A DNA stretch of 64,000 nt from contig JBDRZZ010000005.1 in the NCBI GenBank assembly GCA_039804165.1, positions 27,290-91,289 on the forward strand, written 5' to 3'. Position numbers and translations under genes: made by a program. Positions 18,553 through 53,100 of this stretch are shown piece by piece (position 1 is the first letter of the stretch; each line of letters opens with the position of its first letter). The notes below the pieces were generated by a model. It did not search any database. It was given only the letters and a program-made list of their open reading frames with translations, and was not told where the DNA came from. This stretch comes from a candidate division WOR-3 bacterium (GTDB lineage: Bacteria; Hydrothermota; UBA3072).

Positions 18553-18564
18553 TTTTTTAAATAA

Positions 18565-18636: not shown

Positions 18637-18644
18637 TTTTATTT

Positions 18645-18716: not shown

Positions 18717-18755
18717 GAAAGAGAAAAGATTTTATTTAAAAATGGAGGTTTCTTA

Positions 18756-26335: not shown

Positions 26336-27604
26336 TTACCGAGAGTACCTAATCTTTATTGAGTTCTTATGGGCAGATAGTCCCTCAATTTCTGCGAGTT
26401 TTTCAGCTATTGGTCCTATTTCTTTGAATCCTTCTTTTGTTACTCTTAATGTCGTTTGGAGTTTCAAAAAATCTTTAACACCAAGACCTCCTGTGTATTT
26501 GGAAGCAGTATTTGTGGGTAAAGTGTGATTAAGTCCACTTGAGTAATCTCCAAGAGCTTCAACAGAATATTTTCCAATAAATAAAGAGCCGTAGTTCCTA
26601 AGCTTATTTAAAACATTTTTTGGATTTTTTATGTGTAATTCTAAATGTTCCGGAGCCATTTTATTTGCAAAGATAATTCCTTCCTCCATATTTTCTAAGA
26701 GAACTATGAGCCCTTTATTTTCTATGGATACTCTTGCTATTTCTTTTGTTTGAAGATTTTCTATTTGTTTATTTATTTCCTTTATTACTTTGGATGCAAG
26801 TTCTTTAGAAGTTGTGGCAAGGATTGGGAATGCTTCCTTATCGTGTTCGGCTTGGGATAGTAAATCCATAGCTATTAGTTCTGGTTCTCCACTTTCATCT
26901 GCAATTATCATTATTTCTGTTGGTCCTGCTATGAAGTCTATCCCTACATCTCCGAAAACTTCCTTTTTTGCAGATGCTACATATTTGCTTCCTGGACCGA
27001 CTATTTTATCAACTTTTTTAATGCTTTCAGTTCCATAAGCTAAGGCTGCAATTGCTTGGATTCCTCCTATTTTGTAGATTTCTTTTATTTTGAGAAAATA
27101 AGCAGTTGCTAAAATTAAAGGGTGAATACTATTTTCAAATCTTGGAGGGGAGACTACGGCTATTTCAGATACTCCGGCTACTTGAGCAGGTATTGCACAC
27201 ATAATCAAGGTAGAAACCAAGGGGAAATTCCCACTCGGGACATAAATTCCTATTCTTTCAATCGGAATTACTCTTTGTCCTGTAAATACACCTTTTTGAA
27301 TTTCAAATTCGAAATCTTTAAATTGCTCTTTTTGCTTTTCTGAAAATTTTTTTATATTTTTAGCTGCTTTTTCTATTGCTTTTAAATCTTCTTTTTTTGC
27401 TTTTCTATAAGCATTTTCTATTTCTGATTGACTAACTTTTATTTCCTTTAGAGAGACTTTATCATATTTTTTTGTATATTTTATAAGAGCTTTATCTCCT
27501 TTTTCTTTTATTTCTTTAATTATCTTTTGAATAAACCTTTTATCTTCAATTTTTTTATATTCAAAAAAATCTTCTTTTATTTCCCTATATTTTATAATCT
27601 TCAT
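26336..27604 (-). CDS. hisD: Histidinol dehydrogenase
   Basis: KIVGPGSKYVASAKKEVFGDVGIDFIAGPTEIMIIADESG...LSQAEHD. Confidence 0.9.
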   Translation of the reverse strand: MKIIKYREIKEDFFEYKKIEDKRFIQKIIKEIKEKGDKALIKYTKKYDKVSLKEIKVSQSEIENAYRKAKKEDLKAIEKAAKNIKKFSEKQKEQFKDFEFEIQKGVFTGQRVIPIERIGIYVPSGNFPLVSTLIMCAIPAQVAGVSEIAVVSPPRFENSIHPLILATAYFLKIKEIYKIGGIQAIAALAYGTESIKKVDKIVGPGSKYVASAKKEVFGDVGIDFIAGPTEIMIIADESGEPELIAMDLLSQAEHDKEAFPILATTSKELASKVIKEINKQIENLQTKEIARVSIENKGLIVLLENMEEGIIFANKMAPEHLELHIKNPKNVLNKLRNYGSLFIGKYSVEALGDYSSGLNHTLPTNTASKYTGGLGVKDFLKLQTTLRVTKEGFKEIGPIAEKLAEIEGLSAHKNSIKIRYSR

Positions 27605-27605
27605 T

Positions 27606-30860: not shown

Positions 30861-30862
30861 TT

Positions 30863-31684
30863 TTAGTCCTTTACAAGATAACTTCCTAAAATTTTCATAT
30901 AAGTTACGACTTCTTTTAAAGTCTCTACAGCATGGCTACAATTTTCATTTTCAAGACTTCCCCTAAAATCTATATAGAAGAGATAATCGTATGGTTTTCC
31001 AAAGGTAGCTCTAGATTCTAATTTGGTCAGGTCTATATTTCTCAAGGCAAAAATGCTTAGGCAGCGAAACAAGATTCCGGGTTCGTTTTTTACTCCAAAT
31101 ACAAGCATTGTTCTTGCATTTTCTCCTGAGTAGACTTCTTTTTTCTTTGATATTATAAGAAATCTTGTAAAATTATGAGGATGATTTTCAATTCCACTTT
31201 TTAATTTTTTAAAGCCGTAAAGTTTTGCCACTTGAGGTCCTGCTATAATCGCTACATCTTTTCTCTTTTCCTCTTTTACAATTTTTGCTGCGCCTGCGGT
31301 ATCGTAAACTGAGACCACTTTATATTCAGGATGTGAAGAAAGAAATTCTCTGCATTGAGCCAAAGCTTCAGGATGAGACCAAACTTCTTTTATATTTTCT
31401 AACTTTATTCCTTTAGGAGCCAATAGATTATGGACTATTTTTTGCTTCACTTCCCCAATCACCCAAACATCAAACTCAAGAAGTAAATCATAGTTTTGGT
31501 GAAGACTCCCTGTAAGGGAATTTTCCACAGGAACAATTCCATATGTATCTTTTTCTTTTTGAACTCTTTCAAAAATTTCTCTGAATGTTTTAACCCCAAT
31601 TCTTTTCACCTCCTTAGGGAAGAATTTATAGGAGGCAACTTCGCTATTACAACCTGGTTCTCCTTGATATATTACCTTTTTCAT
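30863..31684 (-). CDS. pheA: Prephenate dehydratase (monofunctional, with a C-terminal ACT domain)
   Basis: [15 protein letters not shown]...[14 protein letters not shown]... PDT fold and an ACT domain. No chorismate mutase domain. Confidence 0.85.
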
Positions 31685-32697: not shown

Positions 32698-32727
32698 ATT
32701 ATTTCCTCCCTAATATATTTAACCTTT

Positions 32728-33507
32728 TCATAGTTTTGTTGCCTCTTTAAGTTGTCGGGTTAAATCTATCAAATTTTCTTTATTTATTATTGCTTCTATT
32801 ATTCTACTTCCTAAAATTACACCATCGGCTTTTCCGTGAAGCATTTTTATTTGCTCTGGGGTTGAGATTCCAAATCCCACAGCTATTGGTAGGTCTGTTA
32901 ATTTTTTTACTTCTTTTAGGAATTTATCAAGATAGCTTGGGAGTCTTTCTCTAATTCCTGTGGTTCCTGTTACTGTAACGCAATACACAAAACCCCTTGA
33001 TACGCTTACAATTTTTTTCCTTCTATTTAATGGAGAGGTAGGGGTTAAAAGAAAGATAAGTTCTGTTTCGTATTCTTTAGATAAAGAAATCCATTCTGAT
33101 GCTTCTTCAACAGGTAAGTCTGGAATTATAAGACCACTTACCCCACTGTCTTTCATATCTTTTATGAATTTTTCCTGTCCGTAGGCAAGTAGGGGATTCA
33201 AATAGCTCATGAAAACAAGAGGGACATTCACTTTTAATTTTTTTACAGCAGAAAGTATTTTCTTTAATGTAGTCCCTTTTGTTAAAGATATTTGTGAGGA
33301 GTGTTGTATTGTGGGGCCATCCGCAATGGGATCTGAAAAAGGTATTCCTATCTCAATTATATCTGCACCACTTTTTGATAGAGTTTTTATAATCTTCATT
33401 GATTCTCCAAGATTTGGAAATCCTCCTGTTACATAAAGAATTAAAGCCATCTCATTTTTTTCTTTTAATTCTTTGAATTTTTCTTGGATTTTTGAAGATC
33501 CCATCAT
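32728..33507 (-). CDS. trpA: Tryptophan synthase alpha chain
   Basis: [48 protein letters not shown]. Confidence 0.9.
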
Positions 33508-34685
33508 AATAGTCCTTCAACAATTTCTAAGTCTTTATCCCCTCTTCCGGAAAGATTAACAATAATTATTTTATCTTTTGGTATATTCTTTCCAATTTTT
33601 ATTGCATAGGCAAGGGCATGAGAACTTTCTAGAGCTGGAATTATTCCTTCGGTTTTTGATAGAATATCAAAAGCTTCTAAGGCTTCTTTATCTTTTACTG
33701 CTGTAAACTCTACAATCCCTTCTTCTTTTAGATAAGCATGTTCTGGCCCTACCCCAGGATAATCCAAACCAGGAGCAATTGAGTGAGTTTCCATTATTTG
33801 TCCGTCTTTATTTTGTAGGAGATAACTCATAGCTCCGTGAAGGGTTCCAATTCCTCCTTTGCATAGACTTGCCGCGTGTTTTTTTGTATCAAGCCCAAGC
33901 CCAGCTGCTTCGACTCCAATCATTTTAATTTTTTCTCCTATAAAGGGATAAAAAATTCCTATGGCATTACTCCCTCCACCTACGCAAGCTATGATTAAAT
34001 CTGGGAGTCTATTTTCTTTTTCTAAAATTTGTGACTTTGTTTCTTTTCCTATCACAGATTGAAAATCTCTTACCATCATTGGATAAGGATGAGGCCCTAC
34101 CACAGAACCAATACAATAGTGAGTTGTTTCTACATTAGTAACCCAATCTCTTATAGCTTCATTTATTGCATCTTTAAGAGTTTTCGAACCTGAGTCCACT
34201 GGAATTACTTCTGCTCCAAGAAGTTTCATTCTAAAAACATTCATTTTTTGTCTTTTTATATCCTTTGTTCCCATATAAACGTGGCACTCTAAACCCAAAA
34301 GGGCGCAAGCTGTTGCAGTTGCTACTCCATGTTGACCTGCCCCAGTTTCAGCAATTACCCTTTCTTTTCCCATTTTTTTTGCTAAGAGAGCCTGACCCAA
34401 GGTATTATTTATTTTATGAGCCCCTGTGTGCATCATATCTTCTCTTTTTAGATATATTTTTGCTCCGCCTACTTTTTGGGTAAGCCTTTCTGCGAAGTAT
34501 AAAGGAGATGGCCTCCCAGCGTATTCCTTTAAATAGTAATTTAACTCATCATTAAAATTTTTGTCTTCTTTAAGAGATTTATATGCTTTTTCTAATTCAG
34601 AGACTGCATTCATTAAAACTTCAGGGATAAACTTCCCTCCAAATCTTCCAAAATATCCTCTTTCATCGGGTAAATTATAATTCAT
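33504..34685 (-). CDS. trpB: Tryptophan synthase beta chain
   Basis: [10 protein letters not shown]...HTGAHKINN...GVGPEH. PLP enzyme. Confidence 0.9.
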
Positions 34686-35115
34686 TTTTACTTTCCTTTA
34701 ATAGATAATTAAGAGCAAGGATATATCCATACCAACCAAGGCCACTGATTTGTCCTTTACATACAGGAGCAATCATACTTGTGTGTCTAAATTCTTCTCT
34801 ACCGTATATATTACTTAAATGGACCTCTACTGTTGGGATTTCCATAGCTTCAATTGCATCTCTAATCGCAATTGAGGTGTGAGTATAACCACCCGGATTT
34901 ATAACTATTCCTGAATATCCTTTTGCCTTATGGATAAATTCCACAATTTCTCCTTCGCTATTTGACTGCTTTATTTCTACCTCAATTTTATTTTCTTTAG
35001 CAAATTTTTTTATCTCTTCATTTATTTTTTCGAGATTCATTTTTCCATAAATTTCCGGTTTTCTTTTGCCTAAAAGATTAAGGTTTGGTCCATGAATTAC
35101 AAGAAATTTTTGCAT
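34675..35115 (-). CDS. aroQ: 3-dehydroquinate dehydratase, type II
   Basis: [24 protein letters not shown]...[16 protein letters not shown]. Confidence 0.9.
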
Positions 35116-36677
35116 TCTACCTCCTTAAAAATTATTTTACCTATTCCTTTTGGAACTGGTAATCTTATTTTTCCATTTCTCACTTTTTTGTCTTGTGCTA
35201 CAAATTTTCTCATCTCTTTATAATTTATATTATCTGGAAGTGATGTTGGCAACTGGTATTTTGAGACTAATTCTTGGATTCTCAAAAAATCTCTTTCTCG
35301 GAGTATTTTTTCTTTTAGGGCTAATTTTGCCTCTTCCACCATTCCAATTGCAATCGCTTCTCCATGAGTATATTTAGAATAATTTGTTAAAGTTTCTATA
35401 ATATGACCTATTGTATGACCATAATTTAGAATTTCTCTTTTCCCTTTTTCTTCCTTTTCGTCTTTTTCTACAACTTCTTTTTTAATCTTGATGCATCTTG
35501 TTACGATTTCTAATAGGGTTGGGATGTCTCTATTTAAGATTTCTTTTTGTTTCTCCTCCAAGAGATAGAAAAGCTTTGCGTCTTTTATTATTCCGTATTT
35601 TATCACTTCCGCCAGGCCGTTTCTGAATTCTTTCTCAGGAAGAGATAAGAGTTTTTTAATATCAACAATAACTTTCTCAGGCTGATAAAATGTTCCAATC
35701 ATATTCTTCCCAAGAGGATGGTCCACGCCGGTTTTCCCACCAATTGAAGAATCTACTTGGGCAATTAAGGTAGTCGGAATGTGAAAAATAGGGATTCCTC
35801 TTTTAAATGTAGAAGCCACAAAAGCTCCCAAGTCACCAATTACCCCTCCTCCGAGAGCCAAGATGGTTCCGGATCTATCCATTTTTTCTTTAAGAAGAAA
35901 ATCATAAACATCTTTTACAGTGTCAAGAGTTTTGTATTTTTCGCCACTGGGAATTGTGAATATTAAAGAATTTAATCCTTTTTTTCTCAATATATTTTCT
36001 ATTTCATAGTAATATAATGAACTAATTAATGGGTTTGATATTACCACTACTTTATTAGTAGGACTTATGTTTAAATAATCTTTTTCAAAAAGATCATATC
36101 CAATGATAATCGGATAAGTTTTAGAACTTGTTTTTATTTTGATTATTTTAAAGAGATTTTTCCCCCACTTTTTTTCAATTTTTAGTTCTTCTATTATTTT
36201 TCTTGCTACTTCTTCTTTTGTAATTGAAGAGGTATCAATTTTTTTATCTGCGAATTCATATATTCCTTTTTTCATCCTTTCGTTATAGATTTTTTCAATG
36301 TTATCTTTATTTTTTATTAAGGGTCTTGTTTCATCATTCTTTAATCTTTCTTTAATAGCGGGAAGAGTAGCATAAAGATAAACCACCTTTCCAATCTTAG
36401 AAAGGAGTTCCCTATTTTCTTTGTCTTTTACTACACCCCCTCCTGTAGCAATCACTGTATTTTTTATATTTTTTATTTCCTGGAGTGTCTGTTTCTCAAT
36501 CTTTCTAAAGTATTTTTCTCCAGACTCTTCAAATATTCTATTTATAGATCTTTTTTCTTTAAAAGTTATATAATCATCCATTGAAAAAAAACAGAGATTA
36601 GTCCTCTTTGAGAGCTCTTTGCCTACAGAATCTTTACCTGAGCCCATAAACCCAATTAGAATTATATTGTTAGACAC
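35097..36677 (-). CDS. Bifunctional shikimate kinase / 3-dehydroquinate synthase (AroK-AroB fusion)
   Basis: N-terminal IILIGFMGSGKDSVGKELSKR (shikimate kinase P-loop) and a C-terminal DHQ synthase (GGGVIGDLGAFVASTFKRGIPIFHIPTTLIAQVDSSIGGKTGVD). GTG start. Confidence 0.85.
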   Translation of the reverse strand: MSNNIILIGFMGSGKDSVGKELSKRTNLCFFSMDDYITFKEKRSINRIFEESGEKYFRKIEKQTLQEIKNIKNTVIATGGGVVKDKENRELLSKIGKVVYLYATLPAIKERLKNDETRPLIKNKDNIEKIYNERMKKGIYEFADKKIDTSSITKEEVARKIIEELKIEKKWGKNLFKIIKIKTSSKTYPIIIGYDLFEKDYLNISPTNKVVVISNPLISSLYYYEIENILRKKGLNSLIFTIPSGEKYKTLDTVKDVYDFLLKEKMDRSGTILALGGGVIGDLGAFVASTFKRGIPIFHIPTTLIAQVDSSIGGKTGVDHPLGKNMIGTFYQPEKVIVDIKKLLSLPEKEFRNGLAEVIKYGIIKDAKLFYLLEEKQKEILNRDIPTLLEIVTRCIKIKKEVVEKDEKEEKGKREILNYGHTIGHIIETLTNYSKYTHGEAIAIGMVEEAKLALKEKILRERDFLRIQELVSKYQLPTSLPDNINYKEMRKFVAQDKKVRNGKIRLPVPKGIGKIIFKEVECKNFL

Positions 36678-37812
36678 TTTTAATCCTCTTTATATAGAAA
36701 TTGTAATTTGCTTTAATGTCTTCCATGCAATCTCCGCCAAATTTTTCCAGAAAGGCGTCGGTTAGGATATATGCAAGAACGCTCTCTCCAATAACTCCAG
36801 CTGCAGGAACAATGCAAGTATCAGCTCTTTCTTTTTGGGCAAAGGTTTGTTTTTTTGTAATGAGGTCTACAGAGCGGAGGGGTTGAGATAGAGTTGGAAT
36901 TGGTTTCATAAATATTCTCACTATGATGTCTTCTCCATTACTCATTCCCCCTTCAATACCTCCAGCTCTATTTGTAAGTCTATAGAATCCCTTTTTCTTA
37001 TCATAAAATATTTCATCATGGACTTCAGAACCAAACATTTCTGTATTTTGAATTCCTTCTCCAATTTCAACAGCTTTTACAGAAGGTATTGACATCATTC
37101 CTCCTGCAATTTTTGTATCAAGCCTTCGATCAAAATGAGTATAACTTCCTATTCCAGGGCAAACTCCTTTTGCGATTATTTCACTTACCCCACCAAGAGA
37201 GTTTCCATTTTTTCTTGCTTCATCAATTAGTTCCATCATCTCTTTCTCTCTTTCGGGATCTCTACATCTTAGAGGAGTATTTTCTATTTCTTCAAAACTC
37301 CTTTTGTTTTCCTTTATTTTTATTTTTCCAATTGAAATGGTATGGGAATAAATTTTTACTCCAAATTCTCTTAAAAAGGTTTTAAATATTGCTCCTGCAG
37401 CTACTCTTCCAGAAGTTTCTCTTGCAGAGGCTCTTTCTAAGATGTCTCTTATATCCTCTCTATTATATTTTAAAGTTCCTGATAAGTCGGCATGTCCTGG
37501 ACGAGGAGAAGTTACTTTCTCTACATTCTTTTCTCCTTCTATTCTCATTATATCTTTCCAGTTTTCAAAATCTCTATTTTGAATTAAAAAAGTTATTGGA
37601 GAACCTATTGTTTCTCCGAATCTTATTCCAGATAAAATTTCGATTTCATCTTTTTCAATTTTCATTCTATTCCCACGTCCATATCCTTTTTGTCGCCTTG
37701 AGAGTTCTTCATTCAAAAAGTCAAGATCTATTTTTAATCCTGCCGGTAGCCCTTCTATTATTACAGTCAGACTTTTACCGTGTGATTCACCAGAGGTTAA
37801 TAATCTAATCAT
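36670..37812 (-). CDS. aroC: Chorismate synthase
   Basis: MIRLLTSGESHGKSLTVIIEGLPAGL...RPGHADL... Confidence 0.9.
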   Translation of the reverse strand: MIRLLTSGESHGKSLTVIIEGLPAGLKIDLDFLNEELSRRQKGYGRGNRMKIEKDEIEILSGIRFGETIGSPITFLIQNRDFENWKDIMRIEGEKNVEKVTSPRPGHADLSGTLKYNREDIRDILERASARETSGRVAAGAIFKTFLREFGVKIYSHTISIGKIKIKENKRSFEEIENTPLRCRDPEREKEMMELIDEARKNGNSLGGVSEIIAKGVCPGIGSYTHFDRRLDTKIAGGMMSIPSVKAVEIGEGIQNTEMFGSEVHDEIFYDKKKGFYRLTNRAGGIEGGMSNGEDIIVRIFMKPIPTLSQPLRSVDLITKKQTFAQKERADTCIVPAAGVIGESVLAYILTDAFLEKFGGDCMEDIKANYNFYIKRIKSV

Positions 37813-38582
37813 TTTTTGAATCCTGCAGCCTTTTTCATTACTTCTATGGGTGCTTTTTTACCTGTCCATATTGTAAAAGCACGAGCACCTTGTAAGACAA
37901 GCATTAAAGAACCATCCACTACTTTGATCCCCTTTTTTTGCTTCATTTTAAATTTATAGTTTATGTCGTAGTAAGTAGAACCTTCTTTAAGTAAATTTAA
38001 AATTTTATCCTGTAAATCTATTGGGGTTGCGTTAAAAATTATATCCATTTCCGGAATTAGTTTTCTAACATTCTTAAGGAGAATGAACTCGGCGTTATAA
38101 ATCTTGGCAAGTTTTTTAGCTTTTTCTGAAATTTTATCAGTAATAAAAAATTGGGAAGGCTCTTTTTTGTTTATTATATAAGAACAAGCATATCCTACTC
38201 CACCTGCTCCAATTAGCATAACTTTTTTATTCTTAAGATTAATTTTATAATGAGAAAGAGACTGGTTAAATCCGTAGACATCTGTATTGAATCCTTTCAG
38301 TTTCCCTTCTTTTATAAGGACAGTGTTTACAGCATCTATTGTTTTTGCTTCTTGAGAGATTTCATCAAGATATTGAATTATTTCTTTTTTATAAGGAATT
38401 GTAACATTGAAACCTCTAAAGCCAAGAGCGCGAAATCCATAAATGGCTTCTTTTAACTTTTCTTTTTTAATTGGAAAACTAAGATAAATTCCCTCAATAT
38501 TAAGGGCTTTAAATGCGGCGTTATGCATATGGGGTGATAATGTTATTTTTAGAGGATAGCCTATTATTCCTGTAATTAACAA
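37809..38582 (-). CDS. aroE: Shikimate 5-dehydrogenase
   Basis: GIIGYPLKITLSPHMHNAAFKALNIEGIYL...GAGGVGYA. TTG start preceded by GGAGG. Confidence 0.85.
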   Translation of the reverse strand: MLITGIIGYPLKITLSPHMHNAAFKALNIEGIYLSFPIKKEKLKEAIYGFRALGFRGFNVTIPYKKEIIQYLDEISQEAKTIDAVNTVLIKEGKLKGFNTDVYGFNQSLSHYKINLKNKKVMLIGAGGVGYACSYIINKKEPSQFFITDKISEKAKKLAKIYNAEFILLKNVRKLIPEMDIIFNATPIDLQDKILNLLKEGSTYYDINYKFKMKQKKGIKVVDGSLMLVLQGARAFTIWTGKKAPIEVMKKAAGFKK

Positions 38583-39187
38583 GTTCTCACCTCCTCAATG
38601 AATTTTTTAACTTTTTCTTTATCTTTTTTACCCTCTATTTTTTCAACTCCTGTAGATACATCAACACCATAAGGAGAAAGCATTTTTATTACAATTTTGA
38701 CATTTTCAGGGGAAAGACCTCCGGCAATTATTAGAGTTTTTTTAATTCCTCTTGCAATTTCCCAATTGAATGTTTTTCCGCTTCCTTTTCCTGGATCGAG
38801 AATATATGCTGAGACAGAATATGGTTCCATTTTTTTTATGAGATTTTCTTTTGAATCAAAAGGAGAGATAGAGATTCGCTTTATAACTTTTCTATTCACT
38901 TTATTACAATACTCTGGAGATTCATCACCATGTAATTGAACCACATCTAAAGGGACAAATTCCGCTATTTCGTTAACTTCTGAAAGAGGAGCATCCATAA
39001 AAACTCCAACTACTGTAATAAATGGGGGAAGTTTTTTTACTATCTCTTTGGCCTTTTGTGGTGTGATTCTTCTTTTCGATTCTGCGAAGACAAAACCTAT
39101 TGCGTCTGCTCCAAGTTCTGAAACCATTAGGGCGTCTTCCTCGTTTGTAATTCCGCAAATTTTTAGTTTTGTTCTTCTTGTAGCCAT
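38576..39187 (-). CDS. trpF: N-(5'-phosphoribosyl)anthranilate isomerase
   Basis: KLKICGITNEEDALMVSELGADAIGFVF...VQLHGDE. Confidence 0.85.
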   Translation of the reverse strand: MATRRTKLKICGITNEEDALMVSELGADAIGFVFAESKRRITPQKAKEIVKKLPPFITVVGVFMDAPLSEVNEIAEFVPLDVVQLHGDESPEYCNKVNRKVIKRISISPFDSKENLIKKMEPYSVSAYILDPGKGSGKTFNWEIARGIKKTLIIAGGLSPENVKIVIKMLSPYGVDVSTGVEKIEGKKDKEKVKKFIEEVRTC

Positions 39188-40254
39188 TTTTTTCCTTCTT
39201 CCATTACATTAATAAAATTTTTCTTTTTACCATCTTTCACTGATTTTATTACATATCTAAGAGCACTCTCTAAGTTTTTATATAATTTATTCTTAAAAGG
39301 ATTGAATTTCTGGATCGCATAATATAAATAAGGATTTTCTGTGATAACGTCTTTTGTTGTCTTTAATTGAGAATTAAAAGTTGTGCTTGCCATTTCCTTT
39401 AATTCTTCATACTTATACTCTCCATTCATTAAAGCTTTCATAAATATTATGTTAATTACATGGGATAAACCAAGGATATAGGAAATTTTTTTGTCGTGTT
39501 CTTCAAGGGAAGTTTCTATAATTGATACGCTTGTATCTTTAAAGAATTTTTTTACTTTTTCATCTGCAAAATTATTTCCACAATTACAGATGCAGATTAT
39601 TCTATCAGAAAGGGTGCTTACTTTTGGTCCAAACATAGGATGAATGCTTGTGTAGGCTATTTTGTGTTTAATGGCTTTTTTGATTGCAGATTTTAAAGGG
39701 CTTTTTAAACTTGCTATATCAAAGACGATCCCTTTGAAATTCAATTTGATTATCTTCTCGATAATTTCTGGCATAACTTCAAAAGGAGTGGCTATTAAAA
39801 TACAGGTTGCTTTATTAATTGCATCTTCCAAATTGTCAAAGCATTTAAAATCTTTTGATTTCCCTTTTGTATCATAAATTAGCACATGATGCCCTTGATT
39901 CGTGAAAAAGTTTGCGAACCATCTTCCCATTTCTCCAAGTCCACCAATGATTAGAATGTCTTCTTTATCTCCTGTGTATGAAGGGGATTGTAGTTTTTCC
40001 TGCTGGAGCTTAGATTCCGTTATTATATGTTGCATAATAGCCTTTACCAAATCCTTTGAAAGTTTCTCTTTTGAAGCTGCCTGAAGAGCGTTTTTTATAA
40101 CCTCTTTTTCTACCTTCCAGTCCCTTAAAGGGATTCCCTTTTCTTTTTTCCTTTTTCCTATTTCTTTTGTTATTGAAAGTCTTTTTCCTATAAGTTTAAT
40201 TATTTCTCTATCGACCTTTTTTACTTCTTTTCTAAGTTTTTCAATTTCTTCCAT
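39163..40254 (-). CDS. tyrA: Bifunctional chorismate mutase (AroQ class) / prephenate dehydrogenase (T-protein)
   Basis: N-terminal CM_2 helix bundle (LRKEVKKVDREIIKLIGKRLSITKEIGKRKKEKGIPLRD) and a Rossmann-fold PDH (ILIIGGLGEMGRWFANFF). Confidence 0.8.
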   Translation of the reverse strand: MEEIEKLRKEVKKVDREIIKLIGKRLSITKEIGKRKKEKGIPLRDWKVEKEVIKNALQAASKEKLSKDLVKAIMQHIITESKLQQEKLQSPSYTGDKEDILIIGGLGEMGRWFANFFTNQGHHVLIYDTKGKSKDFKCFDNLEDAINKATCILIATPFEVMPEIIEKIIKLNFKGIVFDIASLKSPLKSAIKKAIKHKIAYTSIHPMFGPKVSTLSDRIICICNCGNNFADEKVKKFFKDTSVSIIETSLEEHDKKISYILGLSHVINIIFMKALMNGEYKYEELKEMASTTFNSQLKTTKDVITENPYLYYAIQKFNPFKNKLYKNLESALRYVIKSVKDGKKKNFINVMEEGKKWLQEEQN

Positions 40255-40256
40255 TT

Positions 40257-41036
40257 TTACCTTCCAAGAAGTTCTTTTATTTTTTCTCCAGGTTCTCTTT
40301 CCCTTAATAGTGTTTCTCCAACTAAAATTGCGTTAAATCCTGCTTCTTCTAAGATTTGGACGTCCTCTCTTTTTTTAATACCACTTTCACTCACTGTTAT
40401 ATATTTCTCAGGGATAAATTTCTTTAAATTTATTGAGTTGTCAATAGATGTTTTGAATGTTTCGAGATCTCTATTGTTTATCCCTATTATCTCTGCTTCG
40501 GTAGAGAAGACTTTCTGTAGTTCTTCTTTTTTGTGGATCTCTACAAGGGGATAAAGTCCAAGGTCTTTTGCAAGTTGGATAAATTTTTTTAATTGTTCTA
40601 ATTCAAGGATTCTTGCTATTAAAAGGATTGCATCAGCTCCAAGATAGGCGGATTCATATATTTGATATTCGTCTATGATGAAATCTTTTCTTAATATAGG
40701 GAGCCCAACTCCTCCTTTTACAAGAGGTATGTCACTATCTTTGCCCCAGAAGAATTTTGCATCAGTTATAATAGATATTGCACTCGCCCCAGAACTTTCA
40801 TATTCCCTTGCTATAGCAATAGGATCAAGATTTTCCATTATTATTCCAGAAGAAGGAGACATTCTTTTTATTTCAGCAATTAGAGAAATTTTGTTTCCCT
40901 CTAAAGCTTTCTTAAAATCTCTTGTTTCTTTTGGTATTTTTTGGATAAAAGTTCTAAGAGGAATGAAACTCCTTCTTTTCTCAATTTCTACTTTTTTAAA
41001 ATCGAGGATCTTTTTTAGAATATTTTTTTCTATCAT
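40257..41036 (-). CDS. trpC: Indole-3-glycerol phosphate synthase
   Basis: SLIAEIKRMSPSSGII...ILLIARIL...IGINNRDLETF. Confidence 0.9.
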   Translation of the reverse strand: MIEKNILKKILDFKKVEIEKRRSFIPLRTFIQKIPKETRDFKKALEGNKISLIAEIKRMSPSSGIIMENLDPIAIAREYESSGASAISIITDAKFFWGKDSDIPLVKGGVGLPILRKDFIIDEYQIYESAYLGADAILLIARILELEQLKKFIQLAKDLGLYPLVEIHKKEELQKVFSTEAEIIGINNRDLETFKTSIDNSINLKKFIPEKYITVSESGIKKREDVQILEEAGFNAILVGETLLREREPGEKIKELLGR

Positions 41037-42043
41037 AGAGCTATCTTCTTTAATAGGTCTAATTTTCTTAATGCTTCTCCTGAATCGATGGATTCCTTTG
41101 CTTTTTCGATACCTTCCTCTAAGGAGTTTGCTTTCCCTGCAATATATATAGCTGCTCCTGCATTTAGCAAAGTAACATCTCTTTTAGGACCTTTTTCTCC
41201 TTTGAGAATACTAACTGTTATTTTTGCATTTTCTTCTGGGGTTCCTCCTTTAAGTTCTTCTAAATTTGCCCTTTTTATTCCAAAGTCTTCCGGTGTTATT
41301 GTATATTCTATTATTTCCCCCATTTTTAATTCACTTACAAAAGTTTTTCCTGTTGTTGTTATTTCATCTAAGCCATCTTCTCCATGCACAACCATACAGT
41401 GAATTGATCCAAGATTAAGAAGAACGTTAGCAATTGTGGAGGTTAATTCTTTAGAATAAACACCCAATAGTTGTCTTTTTGCTCCTGCAGGATTTGTTAA
41501 AGGACCAAGGATATTAAATATTGTTCTAATTCCCATCTCTCTTCTTGGCCCAATTGCGTATTTCATAGCGGGATGTAAAAGAGGTGCAAATAGGAATCCA
41601 AATCCTGCTTCTTGTATACACTTTTCTACTTTTTCTGGTGGATTTTCAATATTGATTCCGAGCTCTTTTAACAAATCTGCACTTCCGCATCTACTTGATA
41701 CAGAACGATTTCCATGTTTTGCGACTTTACAATTTGCTCCTGCAGCAACAAATGCGCTTATTGTGGAGATATTGAATGTTCCTACTCCATCACCACCTGT
41801 TCCACAGGTATCTATGAGGCATTCAATAGGAACATTTATCTTTGTTACTTTTTCTCTCATAGCTCTTACAAATCCAGTTATTTCATCAACGGTTTCTCCC
41901 TTCATCCTCATTCCGGTTATGAGCGAGGCTATTTGAGCATCTGTTGTTTCTCCGTTCATAATTGAAAGAGCCACTTTATATGCCTCTTCCTGAGTTAGAT
42001 TTTCTTCTTCTACAACTTTTTTAATTGCATCTTTAATGTTCAT
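41033..42043 (-). CDS. trpD: Anthranilate phosphoribosyltransferase
   Basis: DTCGTGGDGVGTFNISTISAFVAAGAN...KHGNRSVSS. Confidence 0.9.
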   Translation of the reverse strand: MNIKDAIKKVVEEENLTQEEAYKVALSIMNGETTDAQIASLITGMRMKGETVDEITGFVRAMREKVTKINVPIECLIDTCGTGGDGVGTFNISTISAFVAAGANCKVAKHGNRSVSSRCGSADLLKELGINIENPPEKVEKCIQEAGFGFLFAPLLHPAMKYAIGPRREMGIRTIFNILGPLTNPAGAKRQLLGVYSKELTSTIANVLLNLGSIHCMVVHGEDGLDEITTTGKTFVSELKMGEIIEYTITPEDFGIKRANLEELKGGTPEENAKITVSILKGEKGPKRDVTLLNAGAAIYIAGKANSLEEGIEKAKESIDSGEALRKLDLLKKIAL

Positions 42044-43245
42044 TTTCTATACCTCCTTAATTCGCTTAAAACTTCGTCAAAAGAAATATTACTCTTTGCC
42101 AAAGCAAAGGTCGCGAGGTATAATAAATTTGCAGCCTTTAATTTAATCTCTTCTTTATCTTTTCCTTCTAAAAGTTCCTTATTTAAGTCTTCATAGGAGA
42201 CTCGGTTTTTAGGATCTCTTATCTTGTCTTTAATTATTTTATACAATTCTTTCAAATTAAAGTTCTTCTCTCCAAAACAAGTGTAAGTTTCGAGGTGACA
42301 AGCAACTCCTTTTTGTTGAACTGTGGCAAGTAGGGTATCTCTATCACAATCAGCTCTTATTTTTAGAAGCTTTTGGATGTTTCCAGAAGTTTCTCCTTTC
42401 ATCCAAAGTTTTCCCCTCGAGCGAGAAAAATAGCACATATTACCTGTTTCAAAAGTTTTTCTTAAAGAATCTTTATTTGAATATGCAAGCATTAAAACTT
42501 GACCTTCATCATCTTGAGTAATTGTTGGTAAGAGGTCTGTTTTCCAATTAAGAGATTCTATAAACCCATCTTTTAAAGAAATTTTTCCTGTATATAGAGC
42601 CATTCCAAGTTGGACATCACATCCCAAGTTAGCTAATTCTTTTATTTCTTCAATTGTGCTTACACCTCCTGCTACTGTAACTTTATTTTTTGTCTCTTTT
42701 AACAATTTCTTTACAATCTCAAGGTTTATACCTTTTAAGGTTCCTTCTTTTTCTACACAGGTAAATAAAAATTCGGAGGCAAATTCTTCTAAATCTTTTA
42801 TCGCTTTATAAAGAGAAATTCCTGTAGAGTGCTTCCAACCTCTTGTTACAATTATTTCATTTAAAGCATCTATGGCTATTATTATTTTCCCCTTACCTAC
42901 TTTTTTTTTGAGCTCTTTTAAGAAGGTCTTGTTTATCTTATCATTTTCAAAAGCCTTAGACCCAATTATAACCTTTTTTGCCCCAAGAGAAATCATCTCT
43001 TTGGCTTTTTCTACACTTCTAATTCCACCTCCAACCCTGCATTCAGCTATTTTTAGGATATTTTTGATAATTTCTTTATTTTCTCCTTTTTCCATCGCGG
43101 CATCAAGGTCAATCACTGCGATTTCTCCATATTTATCGAATTCTTCTGCCAATTTTAGAGGTTGGCTATGTTCCAACATTTTTTCTTTTCCTCTTCTCAG
43201 TTGGACAGCTTTTCCTTCCATTAAATCAATAGAAGCCACAATCAT
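42040..43245 (-). CDS. Trifunctional fusion: ProFAR isomerase (HisA) + phosphoribosyl-AMP cyclohydrolase (HisI) + a short phosphoribosyl-ATP pyrophosphatase-like tail (HisE)
   Basis: Residues 1 to about 228 form the HisA barrel (MIVASIDLMEGKAVQLRRGK...VGGGIRS...). Residues about 235-327 are HisI (VLMLAYSNKDSLRKTFETGNMCYFSRSRGKLWMKGETSGN...CDRDTLLATV). Residues about 328-401 are HisE-like (LKELYKIIKDKIRD...SYEDL...AANLLYLATFALAKSNISFDEVLSELRRYRK). It is a single ORF in one frame. Confidence 0.8.
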   Translation of the reverse strand: MIVASIDLMEGKAVQLRRGKEKMLEHSQPLKLAEEFDKYGEIAVIDLDAAMEKGENKEIIKNILKIAECRVGGGIRSVEKAKEMISLGAKKVIIGSKAFENDKINKTFLKELKKKVGKGKIIIAIDALNEIIVTRGWKHSTGISLYKAIKDLEEFASEFLFTCVEKEGTLKGINLEIVKKLLKETKNKVTVAGGVSTIEEIKELANLGCDVQLGMALYTGKISLKDGFIESLNWKTDLLPTITQDDEGQVLMLAYSNKDSLRKTFETGNMCYFSRSRGKLWMKGETSGNIQKLLKIRADCDRDTLLATVQQKGVACHLETYTCFGEKNFNLKELYKIIKDKIRDPKNRVSYEDLNKELLEGKDKEEIKLKAANLLYLATFALAKSNISFDEVLSELRRYRK

Positions 43246-43994
43246 CTAACGGTAATCCCCCTTTCTTTTAGATATTTCTTTATATCTTTTATTTTATATT
43301 CACCATAATGAAGTAGAGATGCAAGTAAAACACTGGAAGCTTTTCCTTTTAGAATGGCAAGGGCTACTTGTTCGAGATTCCCTGCTCCTCCTGAGGCGAT
43401 TACGGGAATATTCACTGCTTCTGAGACCATTTTAGTGAGTTCAAGATCATAACCTTCTTTGGTTCCATCCTTATCTATTGAATTAAGAAGAATTTCTCCT
43501 GCTCCTAATTCTTCACCTTTTTTTGCCCATTCTATTACAGATAATCCTGAGTTAAATCTACCTCCGTGAGTATATGCTATCCATTTGTTCCCTTTTCTTT
43601 TAGCGTCTATTGAAAGCACGATACATTGAGAACCAAAAATTTTAGCTCCTTCACTTATTAAGGAGGGATTTTTTATGGCACTTGTGCAGATTGAGACTTT
43701 ATCTGCCCCAGCATTTAAGACTTTTCTTATATCTGAAACAGAACGGATCCCCCCTCCCACAGTTAGAGGGATAAAGACTTCTTCAGAGACCTTTTTTACA
43801 ACTTCTATCAAGATTTCTCTACTTTTGTAAGATGCCCCTACATCTAAAAACATAAGTTCATCTGCTCCATCTTTGTAATAAGTTCTTGCAAGTTCAACAG
43901 GGTCTCCAACGCTATTTAGATTTTTAAATTTCACTCCTTTTACAACCTTCCCATTTTCTACATCAAGACAAGGGATGATTCTTATCGCTAACAT
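43242..43994 (-). CDS. hisF: Imidazole glycerol phosphate synthase, cyclase subunit
   Basis: MLAIRIIPCLDVENGKVVKGVKF. Start taken at the internal ATG 43994, because the track start is a TTG four codons upstream. Confidence 0.9.
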   Translation of the reverse strand: MLAIRIIPCLDVENGKVVKGVKFKNLNSVGDPVELARTYYKDGADELMFLDVGASYKSREILIEVVKKVSEEVFIPLTVGGGIRSVSDIRKVLNAGADKVSICTSAIKNPSLISEGAKIFGSQCIVLSIDAKRKGNKWIAYTHGGRFNSGLSVIEWAKKGEELGAGEILLNSIDKDGTKEGYDLELTKMVSEAVNIPVIASGGAGNLEQVALAILKGKASSVLLASLLHYGEYKIKDIKKYLKERGITVR

Positions 43995-44587
43995 TTTTCT
44001 ACCCAATTTCTTAGGAGTTTTAGACCCATTTCTCCACTTTTTTCAGGATGAAATTGAACTCCTATTATATTACCTTTTTCTATTATTGAAGGATAATTCT
44101 TATAGTAATTGGTAGTAGCTACAATTATTTCAGAATCGATAGGTTCTACAAAATAACTGTGCAAAAAATAAAAATAAGTTTTATTTTTGATTCCTGTAAG
44201 GAGAGGAGAATTCTTTTTAATTTCTATTTCGTTCCATCCTATTTGAGGAACTTTACCTTTTTCAAATTTAAGACATTTCCCCTTAAAGATTCCAAAGCCT
44301 TTTGATTCTTTAGATTCCATACTTTCTTCGAAGAGAAGTTGCATACCAAGGCAGATGCCCAAAAAAGGTCTATTATTAATTAGCCAATTCTTTATTATTT
44401 CATAAAAACCATTTTCTTTTAATTTATTTATTGCTGCTTCAAAAGCCCCAACTCCTGGAAGAACAATTTTATTAATTTCTTTTAAATCTTTTGGCTCCGT
44501 TGCTACTATAGTCTCTTTTTTTAGAAAATTAAAAGCTTTCTTTACCGAGTGGAGATTCCCTGCACCATAATCAATTATTGCTATCAT
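43988..44587 (-). CDS. hisH: Imidazole glycerol phosphate synthase, glutamine amidotransferase subunit
   Basis: MIAIIDYGAGNLHSVKKAF...GICLGMQ...QFHPEKS. Confidence 0.9.
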   Translation of the reverse strand: MIAIIDYGAGNLHSVKKAFNFLKKETIVATEPKDLKEINKIVLPGVGAFEAAINKLKENGFYEIIKNWLINNRPFLGICLGMQLLFEESMESKESKGFGIFKGKCLKFEKGKVPQIGWNEIEIKKNSPLLTGIKNKTYFYFLHSYFVEPIDSEIIVATTNYYKNYPSIIEKGNIIGVQFHPEKSGEMGLKLLRNWVEKC

Positions 44588-45176
44588 TTTCTATTACTCC
44601 TTTTGTGCTCGGTATGTCTTCAATTGCTCTTTTATCCAATGAGCAAGCCATTTTCATTGCCTTTCCAAAAGCCTTAAAAATGGCTTCAATTTTGTGGTGG
44701 TCGTTTCTGCCATAAGGCATCCTTACTACAAGATTTGCCCCAAGATTTGTAGCGAATCCATAGAAGAAATCTTCGATAAGGTCTGTGTCTAAGTCTCCGC
44801 AAAATCTCCTTTTAAATTTTGCTTCAAATTGGAGATATGGTCTTCCGCTTATGTCCACAGCTACAACAGCAAGGGCCTCATCCATTGGATAAACAAAATA
44901 TCCTGCCCTATTAATTCCCCTTTTGTCTCCAAGAGCTTTTTTGAAGCTAAGACCAAGGGTAATCCCACAATCTTCTACAAGGTGATGTTGATCTACGTTT
45001 AAATCGCCAATTGCTTTTATTTGTAAATCAAAAAGACCGTGTTTAGCGAAATTCTCCAGGGAGTGATTTAAAAATCCAATTGGAGTTTCAATCTTGTAAG
45101 TTCCGCTCCCATCAATATTTAATTCAACTTTTATCTCTGTTTCTTTTGTTTTTCTTTCAACAGATGTTTTTCTCAT
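44571..45176 (-). CDS. hisB: Imidazoleglycerol-phosphate dehydratase (monofunctional)
   Basis: KTKETEIKVELNIDGSG...DQHHLVEDCGITLG...RNDHHKIEAIFKAFG. Confidence 0.9.
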   Translation of the reverse strand: MRKTSVERKTKETEIKVELNIDGSGTYKIETPIGFLNHSLENFAKHGLFDLQIKAIGDLNVDQHHLVEDCGITLGLSFKKALGDKRGINRAGYFVYPMDEALAVVAVDISGRPYLQFEAKFKRRFCGDLDTDLIEDFFYGFATNLGANLVVRMPYGRNDHHKIEAIFKAFGKAMKMACSLDKRAIEDIPSTKGVIENDSNN

Positions 45177-46221
45177 TTATAACCTCTCTCAATCTTTCAA
45201 TAAAAATTTTATTTTCTTTGGTTTTTCCAATTGTTACCCTCAATGTGTTTTTCAATCTTGGGTTGTCGAAGTATCTTAAAAGGACTCCCTTTTTATAAAG
45301 TTCTTCAAATAGTTCTTTTCCAGAAAGAAATTTTGTTTTAAAAAGGATAAAATTAGTGTAAGAAGGAATGGGTTCAATTCCTGGAAGATCTTGTAATTTG
45401 GAGAAAATATTCTCTCTTTCTTTTATGATTTTTTTTACAACCTCTTCTTTATATTCCTTATTTTTTAATAAAACCTCTCCCGCCACCTGGCTGAATATTC
45501 CCAAGGAGAAGGGAAGCTTTGCCTTTTGAATTTGGCTTGCTAAAGTTTCATTACTTAAAAGATAGCCGATTCTAAGGCCTGCCAGTCCAAAAGCTTTAGA
45601 TAGAGTTCTAATTATAACGAGATTTTCATATTTATTTAATAGGGGAACTGCGGTTTCCTTTGAGAATTCGAAATAAGCTTCGTCTAAAACTAAAACTCCA
45701 TTTATATTTTTTGCAATTTCTTCTATTTCTGGAAGAAAAATTGTTGTTCCTGTAGGATTGTTTGGGACTGCTAAAACGACCATTTTTGAATTTTTTCCTT
45801 TTTTGATTATTGATCTTATATCAAAACTGAAATCTTCTAAAAGGGGAACCTCTATTATTGTTAGATTCATAATTTTAGCAAGATAAGTGTATATTGGAAA
45901 ACTTGGAGAAACGAAAGTAACTTTATCTTTTTTTTCACAGAATGTTTGGAAGACTGCTTGAATTATTTCATTTGAGGCATTCCCTGCCACTATTCCATTT
46001 TTGGGAAAATTATTATATTTAGCAATTGCTTCAACTAAAGGATTGGCAGTTCGTGGCGGATATCTATTCCAGTTTATTTTAAGCATTCTTTTTAATATTT
46101 CTTTTTTTAAATTTAAAGGAACATCATAAGGAGACTCATTTTGATTTAGCTTTACTTCATATTTCTCTTGTGGAACTTTGTATTCTTTCAATTCCTGAAT
46201 TTCTTTTCTTACATATTTCAT
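45157..46221 (-). CDS. hisC: Histidinol-phosphate aminotransferase
   Basis: Class-II aminotransferase (NESPY...YPP...LSKAFGLAGLRIGY PLP lysine). First gene of the supraoperon, with RBS AGGTGGT. Confidence 0.85.
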   Translation of the reverse strand: MKYVRKEIQELKEYKVPQEKYEVKLNQNESPYDVPLNLKKEILKRMLKINWNRYPPRTANPLVEAIAKYNNFPKNGIVAGNASNEIIQAVFQTFCEKKDKVTFVSPSFPIYTYLAKIMNLTIIEVPLLEDFSFDIRSIIKKGKNSKMVVLAVPNNPTGTTIFLPEIEEIAKNINGVLVLDEAYFEFSKETAVPLLNKYENLVIIRTLSKAFGLAGLRIGYLLSNETLASQIQKAKLPFSLGIFSQVAGEVLLKNKEYKEEVVKKIIKERENIFSKLQDLPGIEPIPSYTNFILFKTKFLSGKELFEELYKKGVLLRYFDNPRLKNTLRVTIGKTKENKIFIERLREVINEKNIC

Positions 46222-50114: not shown

Positions 50115-53100
50115 TTACTTTTTTATTTCAAATTCTTTAATTAGTCTATATAGATGTCTTTTTGAAATTTTTAAGTTTTCTGCGGTTTTTTTTATATCCC
50201 AATTTGTTTCTTCAAGAGCTAAAAGGATTGTTTCTCTTTCCCATTTTTTCTTTATCTCTGGCCATGAGACCTTTTTCTCTTCTATTTTTTCTCTTTTTAC
50301 TTCTTCTGGTAGGTCTTCTTCTTTTATATATTCTCCTTTACATTTAATTATAGAAATTTCTACAATATTTCTTAATTCTCTAATATTTCCGGGGAAGGGA
50401 TAATTTTTCAAAATCTCAATTGCTTCTTCTGTAAAGCCCTTTATCTTCTTTTCTCTTTTTTCTCTAAATATTTTTAAATAATGTTCAAGTAAAATGGGGA
50501 TATCAATTTTTCTTTCCCTTAGGGGAGGGATTGATATGTTTATTTGGTTTAAACGATAAAGGAGGTCTTCTCTAAATTCTCTTAAGAAAGCCATTTGTTC
50601 GATATCCTTATTTGTTGCAGAAATAATTCTAACATCGACCTTTCTTATTTCTGTTTCTCCCACCCTTCTAATTTCTCCAAGGTCTGTAACTCGCAAGAGT
50701 CCTGCTTGGATTGAAGGAGGAGCATCTCCAATCTCATCCAAGAAGAGAGTTCCTCCGTTTGCCTCTTCGCACATTCCCTTTTTGTCTTTTATTGCTCCGG
50801 TGAATGAACCCTTTTTGTGACCAAATAATTCACTCTGAAGCAAGGTTTCTGTTAGGGAACTACAATCCACAGTTACAAAGGGCCTATTTTTTCTTTTGCT
50901 TAAAGAGTGGATCGTTCTTGCAATAAGTTCTTTTCCAGTTCCTGTTTCTCCTGTGATTAAAACATTTACATCTGTTGGAGCAATTTCTTCTATTGTTTTA
51001 TATATCTTTTGCATTGGTTCTGAAATCCCAATTATTGAATGGAAAGAATGTGGAGGGGAAGTCATTTTTCTTAACCGAGCTAACTCCTCTTTTATTTGGT
51101 AAAGGAGATCTCCTTTTGCAAAAAGAATGCCGAGAATCCTTCCAATTGACTGTAAGAACTCTTTATCAGAAGGAAGGAAAATGTCTTTTTTTATTGTTGA
51201 ATCAAGATAAAGAACTCCATAAATTTTGTTTTTATAAGTTATTGGAACACATAAAATTGAACGGATTTTATTTCTCTGAATGGAATCCATTTTGTAAAAT
51301 CTTTCATCTATTGTTGCATCTCCTGTGATTATGACTTCTCCTTTTATAACTTTTTCAGTTATTGTTTTTGAGATCTTCCTTGCGTCCTGGAGAGTTATTT
51401 CATCTATGTTGTAAGAAGAAACAATAATATTTTTATCATTCTCTTTTAAAATTAGAGCTCCTCTTTCTGCATTTAGAAATTCTGTAATTGTGGATAAAGC
51501 TTCATCAAACCTTTTTTCCGAGTCAATTGAAGAAAGGAGTTTACTTATTTCGTCATAGGTGTAGATATATCCTTTTCTTAATGAAGTTTTTCTAGCGCAT
51601 TCTGCAAGAAGTTTGGTTGTTTCATTTAAGAAAAGTTCTGATTTTAGCTCCTTAAAAACTTCCTCTGCTTTTTTTAATTCTTCAATTGCTTCTTCTATTC
51701 TATTTTTTTGAAGTAAAATGGTTCCTTTTTTCAATTGTGTTTGAGCAATGTGGAAAGGTAGGCTAATCTTAGAGAAAAGCTTAATTGCTTTATCGCAAAA
51801 CCTTGGTTCCTCGTTTATAAAACCCCAAGAAGAAAGAAGCTTCCCTTTTTCAAAATTTGATTTTAAGGAAGAGATTTTCTCAAAATAAGGTTTTAGAGTT
51901 TCTACTGCCTCTTCTTTTTTTCCTTCTAAGAATAAAACTTCCGAAAGTTGTCGAGCAATATCTCTTTCATCTCTTGGGTCTCCTTTTGTTCTTTTTAAAA
52001 CCTCTCTAAAAATCTTCTCAGCTTCTTTTAGTTCTCCTTTCCATCTAAGAATTGTTCCTTCTAAGTCTCTTAAGTCATATTTTTCTTCTTTTAATTCATT
52101 TCTTAATCTTTCAACCTCAAGCCAATTTCCTTTATATAGCTCTCCTTCAAGTAATTTTGCCTTTAAGAAAGGTTGAAGCTTTCCATGCCTATTTTTAAAA
52201 TCTTCTATTTTCTCTTTTAATTTTTCCCAAAAACCAGTATTAAGATAAAGAATAGATAAACTTGTTAGACAAGGAGATTCAAGTTCTCCAATTTTTAATT
52301 TTTTGAAAATTGAAAGGGCCTCTTCAAGTTGTTTTAAAGCTTCCTTATAGTTATCAAGGCGTAAAAGGGAAATTCCTTTATATGTTATAAATATTGCTTC
52401 ATTTACAAAATCTCGTTCTTTTTTAGATATCTCAAGACATTTCTCAAAATATTCAATTGCCTCTTCATGTTCTTCTTTCTGTTGATTCGCAATCCCTCCA
52501 AGGGTTAAGAAATGTCTTTTTAAGGTAGGGGAGAGGTCTTTTTTTAGTTCCTCTTCAACAATTTTTAATGTTTTCTCAAAATCTCCTTTTGCGCAGAGAA
52601 ACCTTCCTTCAACAAATTTTAATTTTGGTGGTAATTCTTTTGCTTCATTTTTGTATTCCAAAATGAGTTTTTCTGCCTCTTCTATTCTTTCCTGTCTTAC
52701 AAGAAAATAACCTAACCAATAAATCCCTTCTTCTTTTAATTTTCCCTTTGCAAATTTAATTCCTTCTCTAAAATATTTTTCAGCTTCTTCTTTATTCTCA
52801 AGCCTATCAAAAATAGCTCCAATTTTTAATAAATAAAAAGGATTCTCTTTTTTCTTTTCTAAAAGTTCTTTGTAAATGGATAGGGCTTCATTTATCTTTC
52901 CTCCTAATTCAAAAACTCTTCCAAGAACCATCCGAAGAATTGGCTCATCTTTTAAAAGAAGAGCTTCTTGTAAAAATTTTCCAGCTTCCTGATAATCTTT
53001 CTCTTTTATTTTCTTTTTTGCTATTTTTATTAAAGATTCTCTATATTCTTTTTCTTTACCTAAGTCTTTTTCAAGAAGATGTAAAGACTCAGGAGTGGAG

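Follow-up and report, generated by a model that had tools for sequence, protein, structure and literature searches.

A HisA–HisI fusion protein with a degenerate HisE-like tail, encoded in a histidine operon without hisG, in a candidate division WOR-3 bacterium

A 64,000-nucleotide stretch of a candidate division WOR-3 genome (contig JBDRZZ010000005.1 of assembly GCA_039804165.1; hereafter the window) carries a fused histidine biosynthesis gene, designated hisAI(E*), on the minus strand at 42040..43245. Its product joins HisA (phosphoribosylformimino-5-aminoimidazole carboxamide ribotide (ProFAR) isomerase, step 4 of the pathway) and HisI (phosphoribosyl-AMP (PR-AMP) cyclohydrolase, step 3) to a remnant of HisE (phosphoribosyl-ATP (PR-ATP) pyrophosphatase, step 2). 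We consider it likely that this protein is a bifunctional HisA–HisI enzyme with a vestigial HisE, that hisG (step 1) has been lost from the operon, and that PR-AMP is supplied in trans. The gene is a single uninterrupted 401-aa open reading frame (ORF) with an ATG start, and the plus-strand frame over the same interval is closed by stops. An initial annotation of the sequence had described one 401-aa ORF in the order HisA–HisI–HisE-like, without giving the strand; the Pfam domains and the continuous frame agree with that description and leave no sign of two separate genes. Its label "trifunctional" is wrong for the window copy, which is best read as a bifunctional protein with a vestigial third module. 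Beyond that annotation, we found that the second HisE motif is also dead, that the operon has no hisG, and that HisE loss recurs in sister lineages. The protein is 100% identical to NCBI MEO0293273.1 (P0001), from a candidate division WOR-3 metagenome-assembled genome (MAG), and is also present in one Logan assembly. The NCBI annotation pipeline (PGAP) labels it only "phosphoribosyl-AMP cyclohydrolase", and its relatives are labelled HisIE.

The damage to the HisE module affects both of its metal-binding motifs. Compared with the homologs of about 414 aa, the stretch from the SY motif to helix α7 is 13 residues shorter in the window protein, and the missing segment is exactly the one that holds K-ILEEAxE (EExxE) in the homologs; the alignment thus corroborates the earlier remark that the central metal-binding helix is missing. 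In addition, the conserved W-E-A-A-D of helix α7 has become L-K-A-A-N (E to K and D to N), and in the alignment with 7BGM K370 and N373 fall on Glu234 and Asp237 of MtHISN2. In the crystal structure of MtHISN2, the HisE metal ligands are Glu214, Glu217 and Glu220 on α6 and Glu234 and Asp237 on α7, and these two helices build the dimeric four-helix-bundle active site (PMC8102479). None of the EE-E/W-E-D ligands is in register in the window tail, and all five canonical ligand positions are lost. By comparison, all six HisE motif residues are kept in 110 of the 120 best homologs, and every acidic ligand is kept in 96 of 98 fused proteins drawn from genomes and metagenomes, from Treponema to WOR-3. 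The flanking segments that had been reported as retained, namely LKELY, SYEDL, AANLLYLATFALA and DEVLSELRR, are all present, as is Y376, the equivalent of Tyr240 of MtHISN2.

Profile and structure searches gave the same picture. When the tail was aligned to HisE profiles, as the initial annotation had proposed, it scored below threshold with both PRA-PH PF01503 (18.1 bits against a gathering threshold of 21.3, with residues 358–398 covering profile positions 41–84 of 86) and the NCBIfam HisE model TIGR03188 (17.4 against a cutoff of 42.7), and the acidic motifs were not intact. No significant HisE match was found for the tail in the PDB (E≥0.2), whereas the tail of the intact relative P0002 matches the solved HisE structure 1YVW at 4e-9. 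A hidden or frameshifted EExxE was ruled out by translating the three frames of the tail, in which there was neither the motif nor a sign of a frameshift. Because the structure-defined metal ligands are lost, we judge the HisE module to be, in all likelihood, catalytically dead, and it is very unlikely that the window protein performs the PR-ATP pyrophosphatase step, on which doubt had already been cast.

The predicted structure and the rate of divergence were also examined. AlphaFold2 was fed the same 120-sequence alignment for the window protein and for P0002. In P0002, α6 is a 17-residue helix with a predicted local distance difference test (pLDDT) score of 93–97, while in the window protein the same region is a 7-residue helix or turn with a pLDDT of 57–67, the neighbouring helices being preserved. 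Identity to the closest intact relatives is 78–80% over the HisA–HisI body and 41–48% over the tail, whereas intact pairs at equal body divergence have a tail identity of 78±5%, with a minimum of 60%. The EExxE helix is deleted, ExxD is changed to K/N, and what is left of the tail has diverged much more quickly than the other modules. It is conceivable that the shortened tail is instead an active PR-ATP pyrophosphatase that uses rearranged acidic residues such as those of EGKDKEE, given that the frame is kept, that helices α4/5, α7 and α8 are confidently predicted, and that several Glu and Asp residues lie within residues 352–366 alongside the retained Y376. We hold this to be highly improbable, since the five lost ligands are invariant in nearly all fused homologs, α6, which forms half of the four-helix-bundle site, is cut to a short low-confidence turn, the profile scores are sub-threshold, and sister lineages delete the module outright with the conservation of their other genes unaffected.

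Unlike the tail, the HisA and HisI modules look intact, and both are predicted to be active. The HisA module matches His_biosynth PF00977 over profile positions 1–227 of 228 (E=3.5e-50; 171 bits against a gathering threshold of 23.6) and TIGR00007 at E=1.3e-53. Its TIGR00007 score of 182 is under the strict NCBIfam equivalog cutoff of 228.95, a shortfall that would be expected for a divergent, fused member of the family. D7 and D126 are invariant across 120 homologs. D7 pairs with residue 8 of 1QO2 (an offset of +1), and D126 would be the counterpart of Asp127 of Thermotoga maritima HisA, whose two catalytic aspartates are Asp8 and Asp127. The module is modelled with a pLDDT of about 95. The HisI module matches PRA-CH PF01502 (E=4.4e-33; 113.4 bits against a gathering threshold of 27) and passes the equivalog cutoff of NF000768 (131.3 against 126). 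In the set of 120 homologs, C300, C316, H317 and C323 are invariant and D299, D301 and D303 are kept, corresponding to the zinc cysteines, the catalytic histidine and the acidic magnesium cluster. The cysteine spacings of 16 and 7 equal those of the zinc ligands Cys126, Cys142 and Cys149 of MtHISN2, whose HisI site also includes His143 (PMC8102479).

hisAI(E*) lies in an apparent minus-strand super-operon with the gene order hisC-hisB-hisH-hisF-hisAI(E*)-trpD-trpC-tyrA-trpF-aroE-aroC-aroKB-aroQ-trpB-trpA-DAHPS-pheA-aroA-trpE-trpG-hisD (DAHPS, 3-deoxy-D-arabino-heptulosonate 7-phosphate synthase). This unit (26336-46221) packs 21 genes tightly into about 20 kb, serves histidine, tryptophan and shikimate/phenylalanine/tyrosine synthesis, and contains fused aroK-aroB and chorismate mutase–prephenate dehydrogenase genes. 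The HisG of locus L007 gave no tblastn match in the window, in L001–L006 or in L009. Pfam scans of about 46 window ORFs outside the mid-operon interval 32728-42043, whose ORFs were assigned by synteny, detected no HisG, HisZ, HisE, MazG or Nudix domain. A clade-specific HisE hidden Markov model searched against the six-frame translation of the window matched only the tail, and no Rfam riboswitch or leader family was found upstream of hisC. The last codons of hisAI(E*), TTA-AGG-AGG...A-TGA, form a Shine–Dalgarno sequence and the overlapping ATG of trpD. The need for this ribosome-binding site and start probably kept the tail frame open and maintained translational coupling, which can explain why a dead module is retained until a clean deletion in frame happens to remove it; a packing or dimerisation role with a partner is a further possibility for the tail.

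Searches outside the window were also made for relocated copies. A metagenome scan for hisG, which missed known positives, returned among the matches listed at least one close HisG (L090), located inside an intact operon. A non-exhaustive search for stand-alone hisE with the HisE module of P0014 scored only ten candidates. Among them, P0128 is a gene call starting within HisI on a contig at 2x coverage, and P0130, from an unrelated assembly, is a truncated piece adjacent to hisD. In the unrelated assembly GCA_024449895.1 (L171, 10001-10261), an 86-aa HisE-only tail of the fusion type lies directly upstream of hisD; this fragment is the converse remnant, from which the HisA–HisI part has been lost.

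The window gene would have descended from a widespread three-module fusion. A search of the database brought up hundreds of clusters, formed at 90% identity, of HisA–HisI–HisE homologs of 413–415 aa with all three Pfam domains. In a scan of a genome collection with one genome per GTDB species, 356 relatives were confirmed and 80 loci retained, 79 of which contain the full HisA–HisI–HisE ORF; the best match to the window protein in this collection has 71% identity. The hosts comprise WOR-3, KSB1, Calditrichota, Aminicenantales, Anaerolineales and a large block of Treponema, including the cultured Treponema parvum ATCC 700773, whose complete genome carries the fusion. In Treponema, hisG is not near the fusion gene. 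The initial annotation had considered the fusion of HisA to HisIE a non-standard arrangement, which is overstated in view of these counts across several phyla. The architecture is under-described rather than new: PGAP names the ~414-aa fusions "bifunctional HisIE", no PDB chain covers HisA plus HisI, and reviews from the Fani group list hisD, N, B, H, F, I and E, and not hisA, among the fused his genes (PMC1963479, PMC10138114).

The window protein belongs to this family by its orthology over the full length and its syntenic operon position. It is 70–72% identical to P0002–P0021 at 100% query coverage (about 80% over HisA–HisI), and it shares with the ~414-aa fusions of WOR-3 the domain order and the slot between hisF and trpD. 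These fusions differ in having a complete HisE, whereas the window protein is 12–13 residues shorter and has lost all HisE metal ligands, its tail identity is far below the approximately 78% expected, and its operon is without hisG. With the canonical HisIE proteins (E. coli/Shigella 6J2L and plant HISN2 7BGM) it shares a homologous HisI in which all zinc and magnesium ligands are present, and the all-α PRA-PH fold of these proteins and of stand-alone HisE (1YVW, 2A7W and 1Y6X) is the one from which the tail originates. Compared with both, the window protein adds an N-terminal HisA barrel, and its active-site helix is deleted and its ExxD motif mutated. Odd fusions in L031, L023 and L017 were discarded as artefacts of masked N's or of stop-to-stop ORF extension.

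Loss of HisE is recurrent in this WOR-3 clade, in which we found at least five different HisE lesions, and several HisE-defective forms are among the relatives nearest to the window protein in HisA–HisI identity. In the 340-aa proteins P0022, P0024 and P0026, FSLEEL joins RRRRR through a 222-bp deletion between 12-bp direct repeats, TTAGAAGAATTA, which encode LEEL and bracket the HisE module (L001 6490-7512 versus L170 3999-5243 and L007 10001-11245). This allele occurs on eight independent contigs from NCBI, Logan and JGI samples and keeps the AGGAGG...ATGA coupling element for trpD. The 331-aa P0036 ends earlier with a different junction, and its trpD begins 24 nt later. In the 408-aa P0010, EEAxE has become EKATG and the GSY segment is gone. 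The GC-rich, more distant WOR-3 locus L034 has another HisE-less end that arose by a separate deletion and has kept hisG, which means that HisE loss alone is tolerated. The 340- and 331-aa proteins and that of L034 have bodies 76–79% identical to that of the window protein and would likewise be without HisE activity; the P0022 and P0036 loci resemble the window in being without hisG, whereas L034 does not. Their module was removed by repeat-mediated in-frame deletion or truncation, while the window protein keeps a degenerate 74-aa remnant. In a neighbour-joining tree, the window protein forms a separate branch that is the sister of the close clade as a whole, and the other defective proteins are interspersed with intact ones.

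The distribution of hisG follows a related pattern. Wherever the upstream sequence of an intact close relative extends far enough, a long-form hisG heads the operon (L007/L014, L010, L011, L013, L015, L017, L090 and L170, and the bracketing L173), and it is absent from the operon in the window, L001–L003, L005, L009 and the P0036 contig. In L001, L005 and L009, the hisG leader is joined straight to the hisC ribosome-binding site at one shared junction, and hisG was therefore cleanly excised. The window lineage and the P0022/P0010 group have each lost both HisE and hisG. In the latter, different HisE lesions followed a single shared hisG-excision junction, an order that suggests that HisE is dispensable once hisG is gone and that would be expected if a single replacement covers both steps. 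The close-clade clusters in the database number 21 for HisG and 19 intact plus 7 defective for HisAI(E), which fits the defective lineages being without a vertically inherited hisG.

Some features of the regions around these operons were also recorded. In the close WOR-3 relatives L001 (3232-3387), L007 (5858-6013), L009, L010, L011, L013, L015, L017, L090 and L173, the super-operon is preceded by a strongly conserved leader about 150 nt long. This leader has an invariant stem CCGAGTT...AACTCGG followed by a AGAAAAATGTTTTTTTCT hairpin and a U-run, survives hisG excision, has no Rfam match and shows almost no covariation; the motif is not found upstream of the window hisC. In L007, the relative with P0003, the intact his operon is immediately preceded by a type I CRISPR-Cas set (Cas3, Cas5d, Cas7 and a Cas8-like TM1802 protein; 1-5252), and hisG-less relatives have a V-ATPase operon in its place.

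Selection on the remaining pathway was assessed by the Nei–Gojobori method for two hisG-less lineages, L001 and L009, between which dS is 0.7–1.5. The dN/dS values were 0.098 for hisC, 0.072 for hisB, 0.064 for hisH, 0.048 for hisF and 0.057 for the HisA–HisI body, compared with 0.075 for trpD. The his values are indistinguishable from that of trpD and from those of the intact pair L170/L007 (0.04–0.10), and the downstream his pathway is under purifying selection in these hisG-less sister lineages. This bears on the alternative that the his pathway is decaying, in a lineage that is a histidine auxotroph, or on the way to being one, and whose remaining genes have yet to decay. Consistent with such decay, hisG and a functional hisE are both absent from the window and its operon, and the number of HisG clusters approximates that of intact HisAIE clusters, not the total of 26. 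We nevertheless regard auxotrophy as unlikely, because the seven other his genes of the window are full-length and keep their catalytic residues, drift is confined to the tail while the HisA–HisI body is conserved, the sister lineages have maintained a dN/dS of 0.05–0.10 over a dS of approximately 0.7–1.5, and the excision of hisG left both the promoter/leader and the ribosome-binding site of hisC in place.

Taken together, these observations favor a HisA–HisI enzyme that would perform steps 3 and 4 and would carry the step 2 module as a vestige, in an operon that has lost step 1 and still has intact hisC, B, H, F, A, I and D. As the operon has neither hisG nor a working HisE, PR-AMP would have to come from genes elsewhere in the genome, most likely from another ATP phosphoribosyltransferase and a stand-alone HisE or MazG-family pyrophosphatase; both the supply of steps 1 and 2 in trans and the identity of these substitutes are our inference. 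A model for such supply is Desulfovibrio, whose histidine pathway is without canonical HisE and in which the MazG-family protein DVU1186 replaces it (Price et al. 2018, PMC5764234). Unlike Desulfovibrio, the window, within the scope of the ORF scan given above, has no MazG-like gene.

Several points weigh against this interpretation. Within the scope given above, neither the window nor the non-exhaustive searches for relocated copies yielded a substitute hisE, MazG or hisG. The tail is still open over 74 codons in an AT-rich genome and keeps the acidic residues of EGKDKEE, and some residual function of the tail is possible. Furthermore, dS is saturated between the window lineage and every relative at hand, and for the window lineage the argument therefore rests on intact ORFs, on catalytic residues that have been kept, and on a body that is conserved where the tail is not.

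Two other explanations were weighed. One is an unrecognised entry into the pathway that bypasses HisG and HisE, for example by forming PR-AMP directly from phosphoribosyl pyrophosphate (PRPP) and AMP. It would account for the joint loss of hisG and HisE function in two independent lineages with HisI and the downstream genes under selection, and the order in the P0022/P0010 group, with the hisG junction first, is that expected if HisE lost its substrate after the loss of HisG. We know of no enzyme for such a bypass; L034 lost HisE yet kept hisG, and an ordinary hisG with hisE or MazG elsewhere in the genome, as with hisG in Treponema, is simpler. Such an entry thus seems quite improbable. The other is that the tail is an assembly or sequencing artefact or that the contig is a chimera within the MAG. 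The exact protein is found on one contig only, but the change is an in-frame 39-nt deletion with dozens of substitutions and no frameshift, the flanking genes are syntenic with those of relatives, the NCBI and Logan assemblies share the sequence, and analogous lesions are replicated across many independent samples, so that an artefact is scarcely conceivable.

Table 1. Positions of hisAI(E*), its modules and associated his operon features in the window
Feature	Position	Strand	Evidence or remark
Complete hisA-hisI-hisE* ORF, 401 aa	42040..43245	-	Stop codon at 42040-42042
HisA (ProFAR isomerase) TIM-barrel module, residues 1-222	42580..43245	-	PF00977, TIGR00007
HisI (PR-AMP cyclohydrolase) module, residues 252-324	42274..42492	-	PF01502, NF000768
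Degenerate HisE-like tail, residues 328-401 (74 aa)	42043..42264	-	PF01503 sub-threshold
Site of the 13-residue deletion, residues ~355-361, N-KELLEG in place of helix α6 and EExxE	42163..42183	-	Alignments, AlphaFold2
Mutated ExxD metal-ligand motif of helix α7, K370-A-A-N373	42127..42138	-	Alignments
trpD coupling signal: AGGAGG (42052-42057) and ATGA stop/start overlap (42040-43)	42040..42057	-	Sequence
hisF	43242-44006	-	Synteny with Pfam-annotated loci
hisH	43988-44587	-	Synteny with Pfam-annotated loci
hisB	44571-45176	-	Synteny with Pfam-annotated loci
hisC	45157-46221	-	Synteny with Pfam-annotated loci; hisG not upstream
hisD, distal end of the super-operon after trpG	26336..27604	-	PF00815, E=5e-161

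Elsewhere in the window, a minus-strand gene at 50115-54740 encodes a 1541-aa regulator with a Ser/Thr protein kinase, a STAND-type AAA_16 NTPase, TPR repeats, a GAF domain and a sigma-54 activator AAA+ domain with its lid. A glycan-utilisation cluster at 4046-16811 comprises a ROK regulator/kinase, two GH94 phosphorylases, a GH130 mannoside phosphorylase, SSF and MFS_2 transporters, a GlcNAc 2-epimerase-like protein and a GH27-type alpha-galactosidase. The genes for tRNA-Gly(GCC) and tRNA-Cys(GCA) (18564-18716) overlap the 5' part of the called S20 ORF (18603-19013); since the S20 Pfam match begins at residue 53, the real rpsT start is downstream of the called one.

The HisA–HisIE fusion is widespread yet missing from the standard lists of his fusions, and its annotation has consequences for pathway reconstruction: if the name "HisIE" were transferred by homology, this genome would be credited in error with step 2, whereas a check of the ligands exposes gaps at steps 1 and 2. 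The clade provides a natural series of module decay in a multifunctional enzyme once a module is redundant, with ligand loss, partial deletion, repeat-mediated excision and truncation all represented in one operon frame, and with the C-terminal codons preserved because they carry the ribosome-binding site of the next gene. Because hisG and HisE were lost together and the downstream pathway was kept, these lineages could lead to alternative enzymes for steps 1 and 2. If, as seems improbable, complete genomes of these lineages prove to be without HisG and HisE/MazG homologs, PR-AMP would be produced by an undescribed enzyme, either a non-homologous ATP phosphoribosyltransferase together with a new pyrophosphatase or a phosphoribosyltransferase acting directly on PRPP and AMP, and this would constitute a new entry into histidine biosynthesis.

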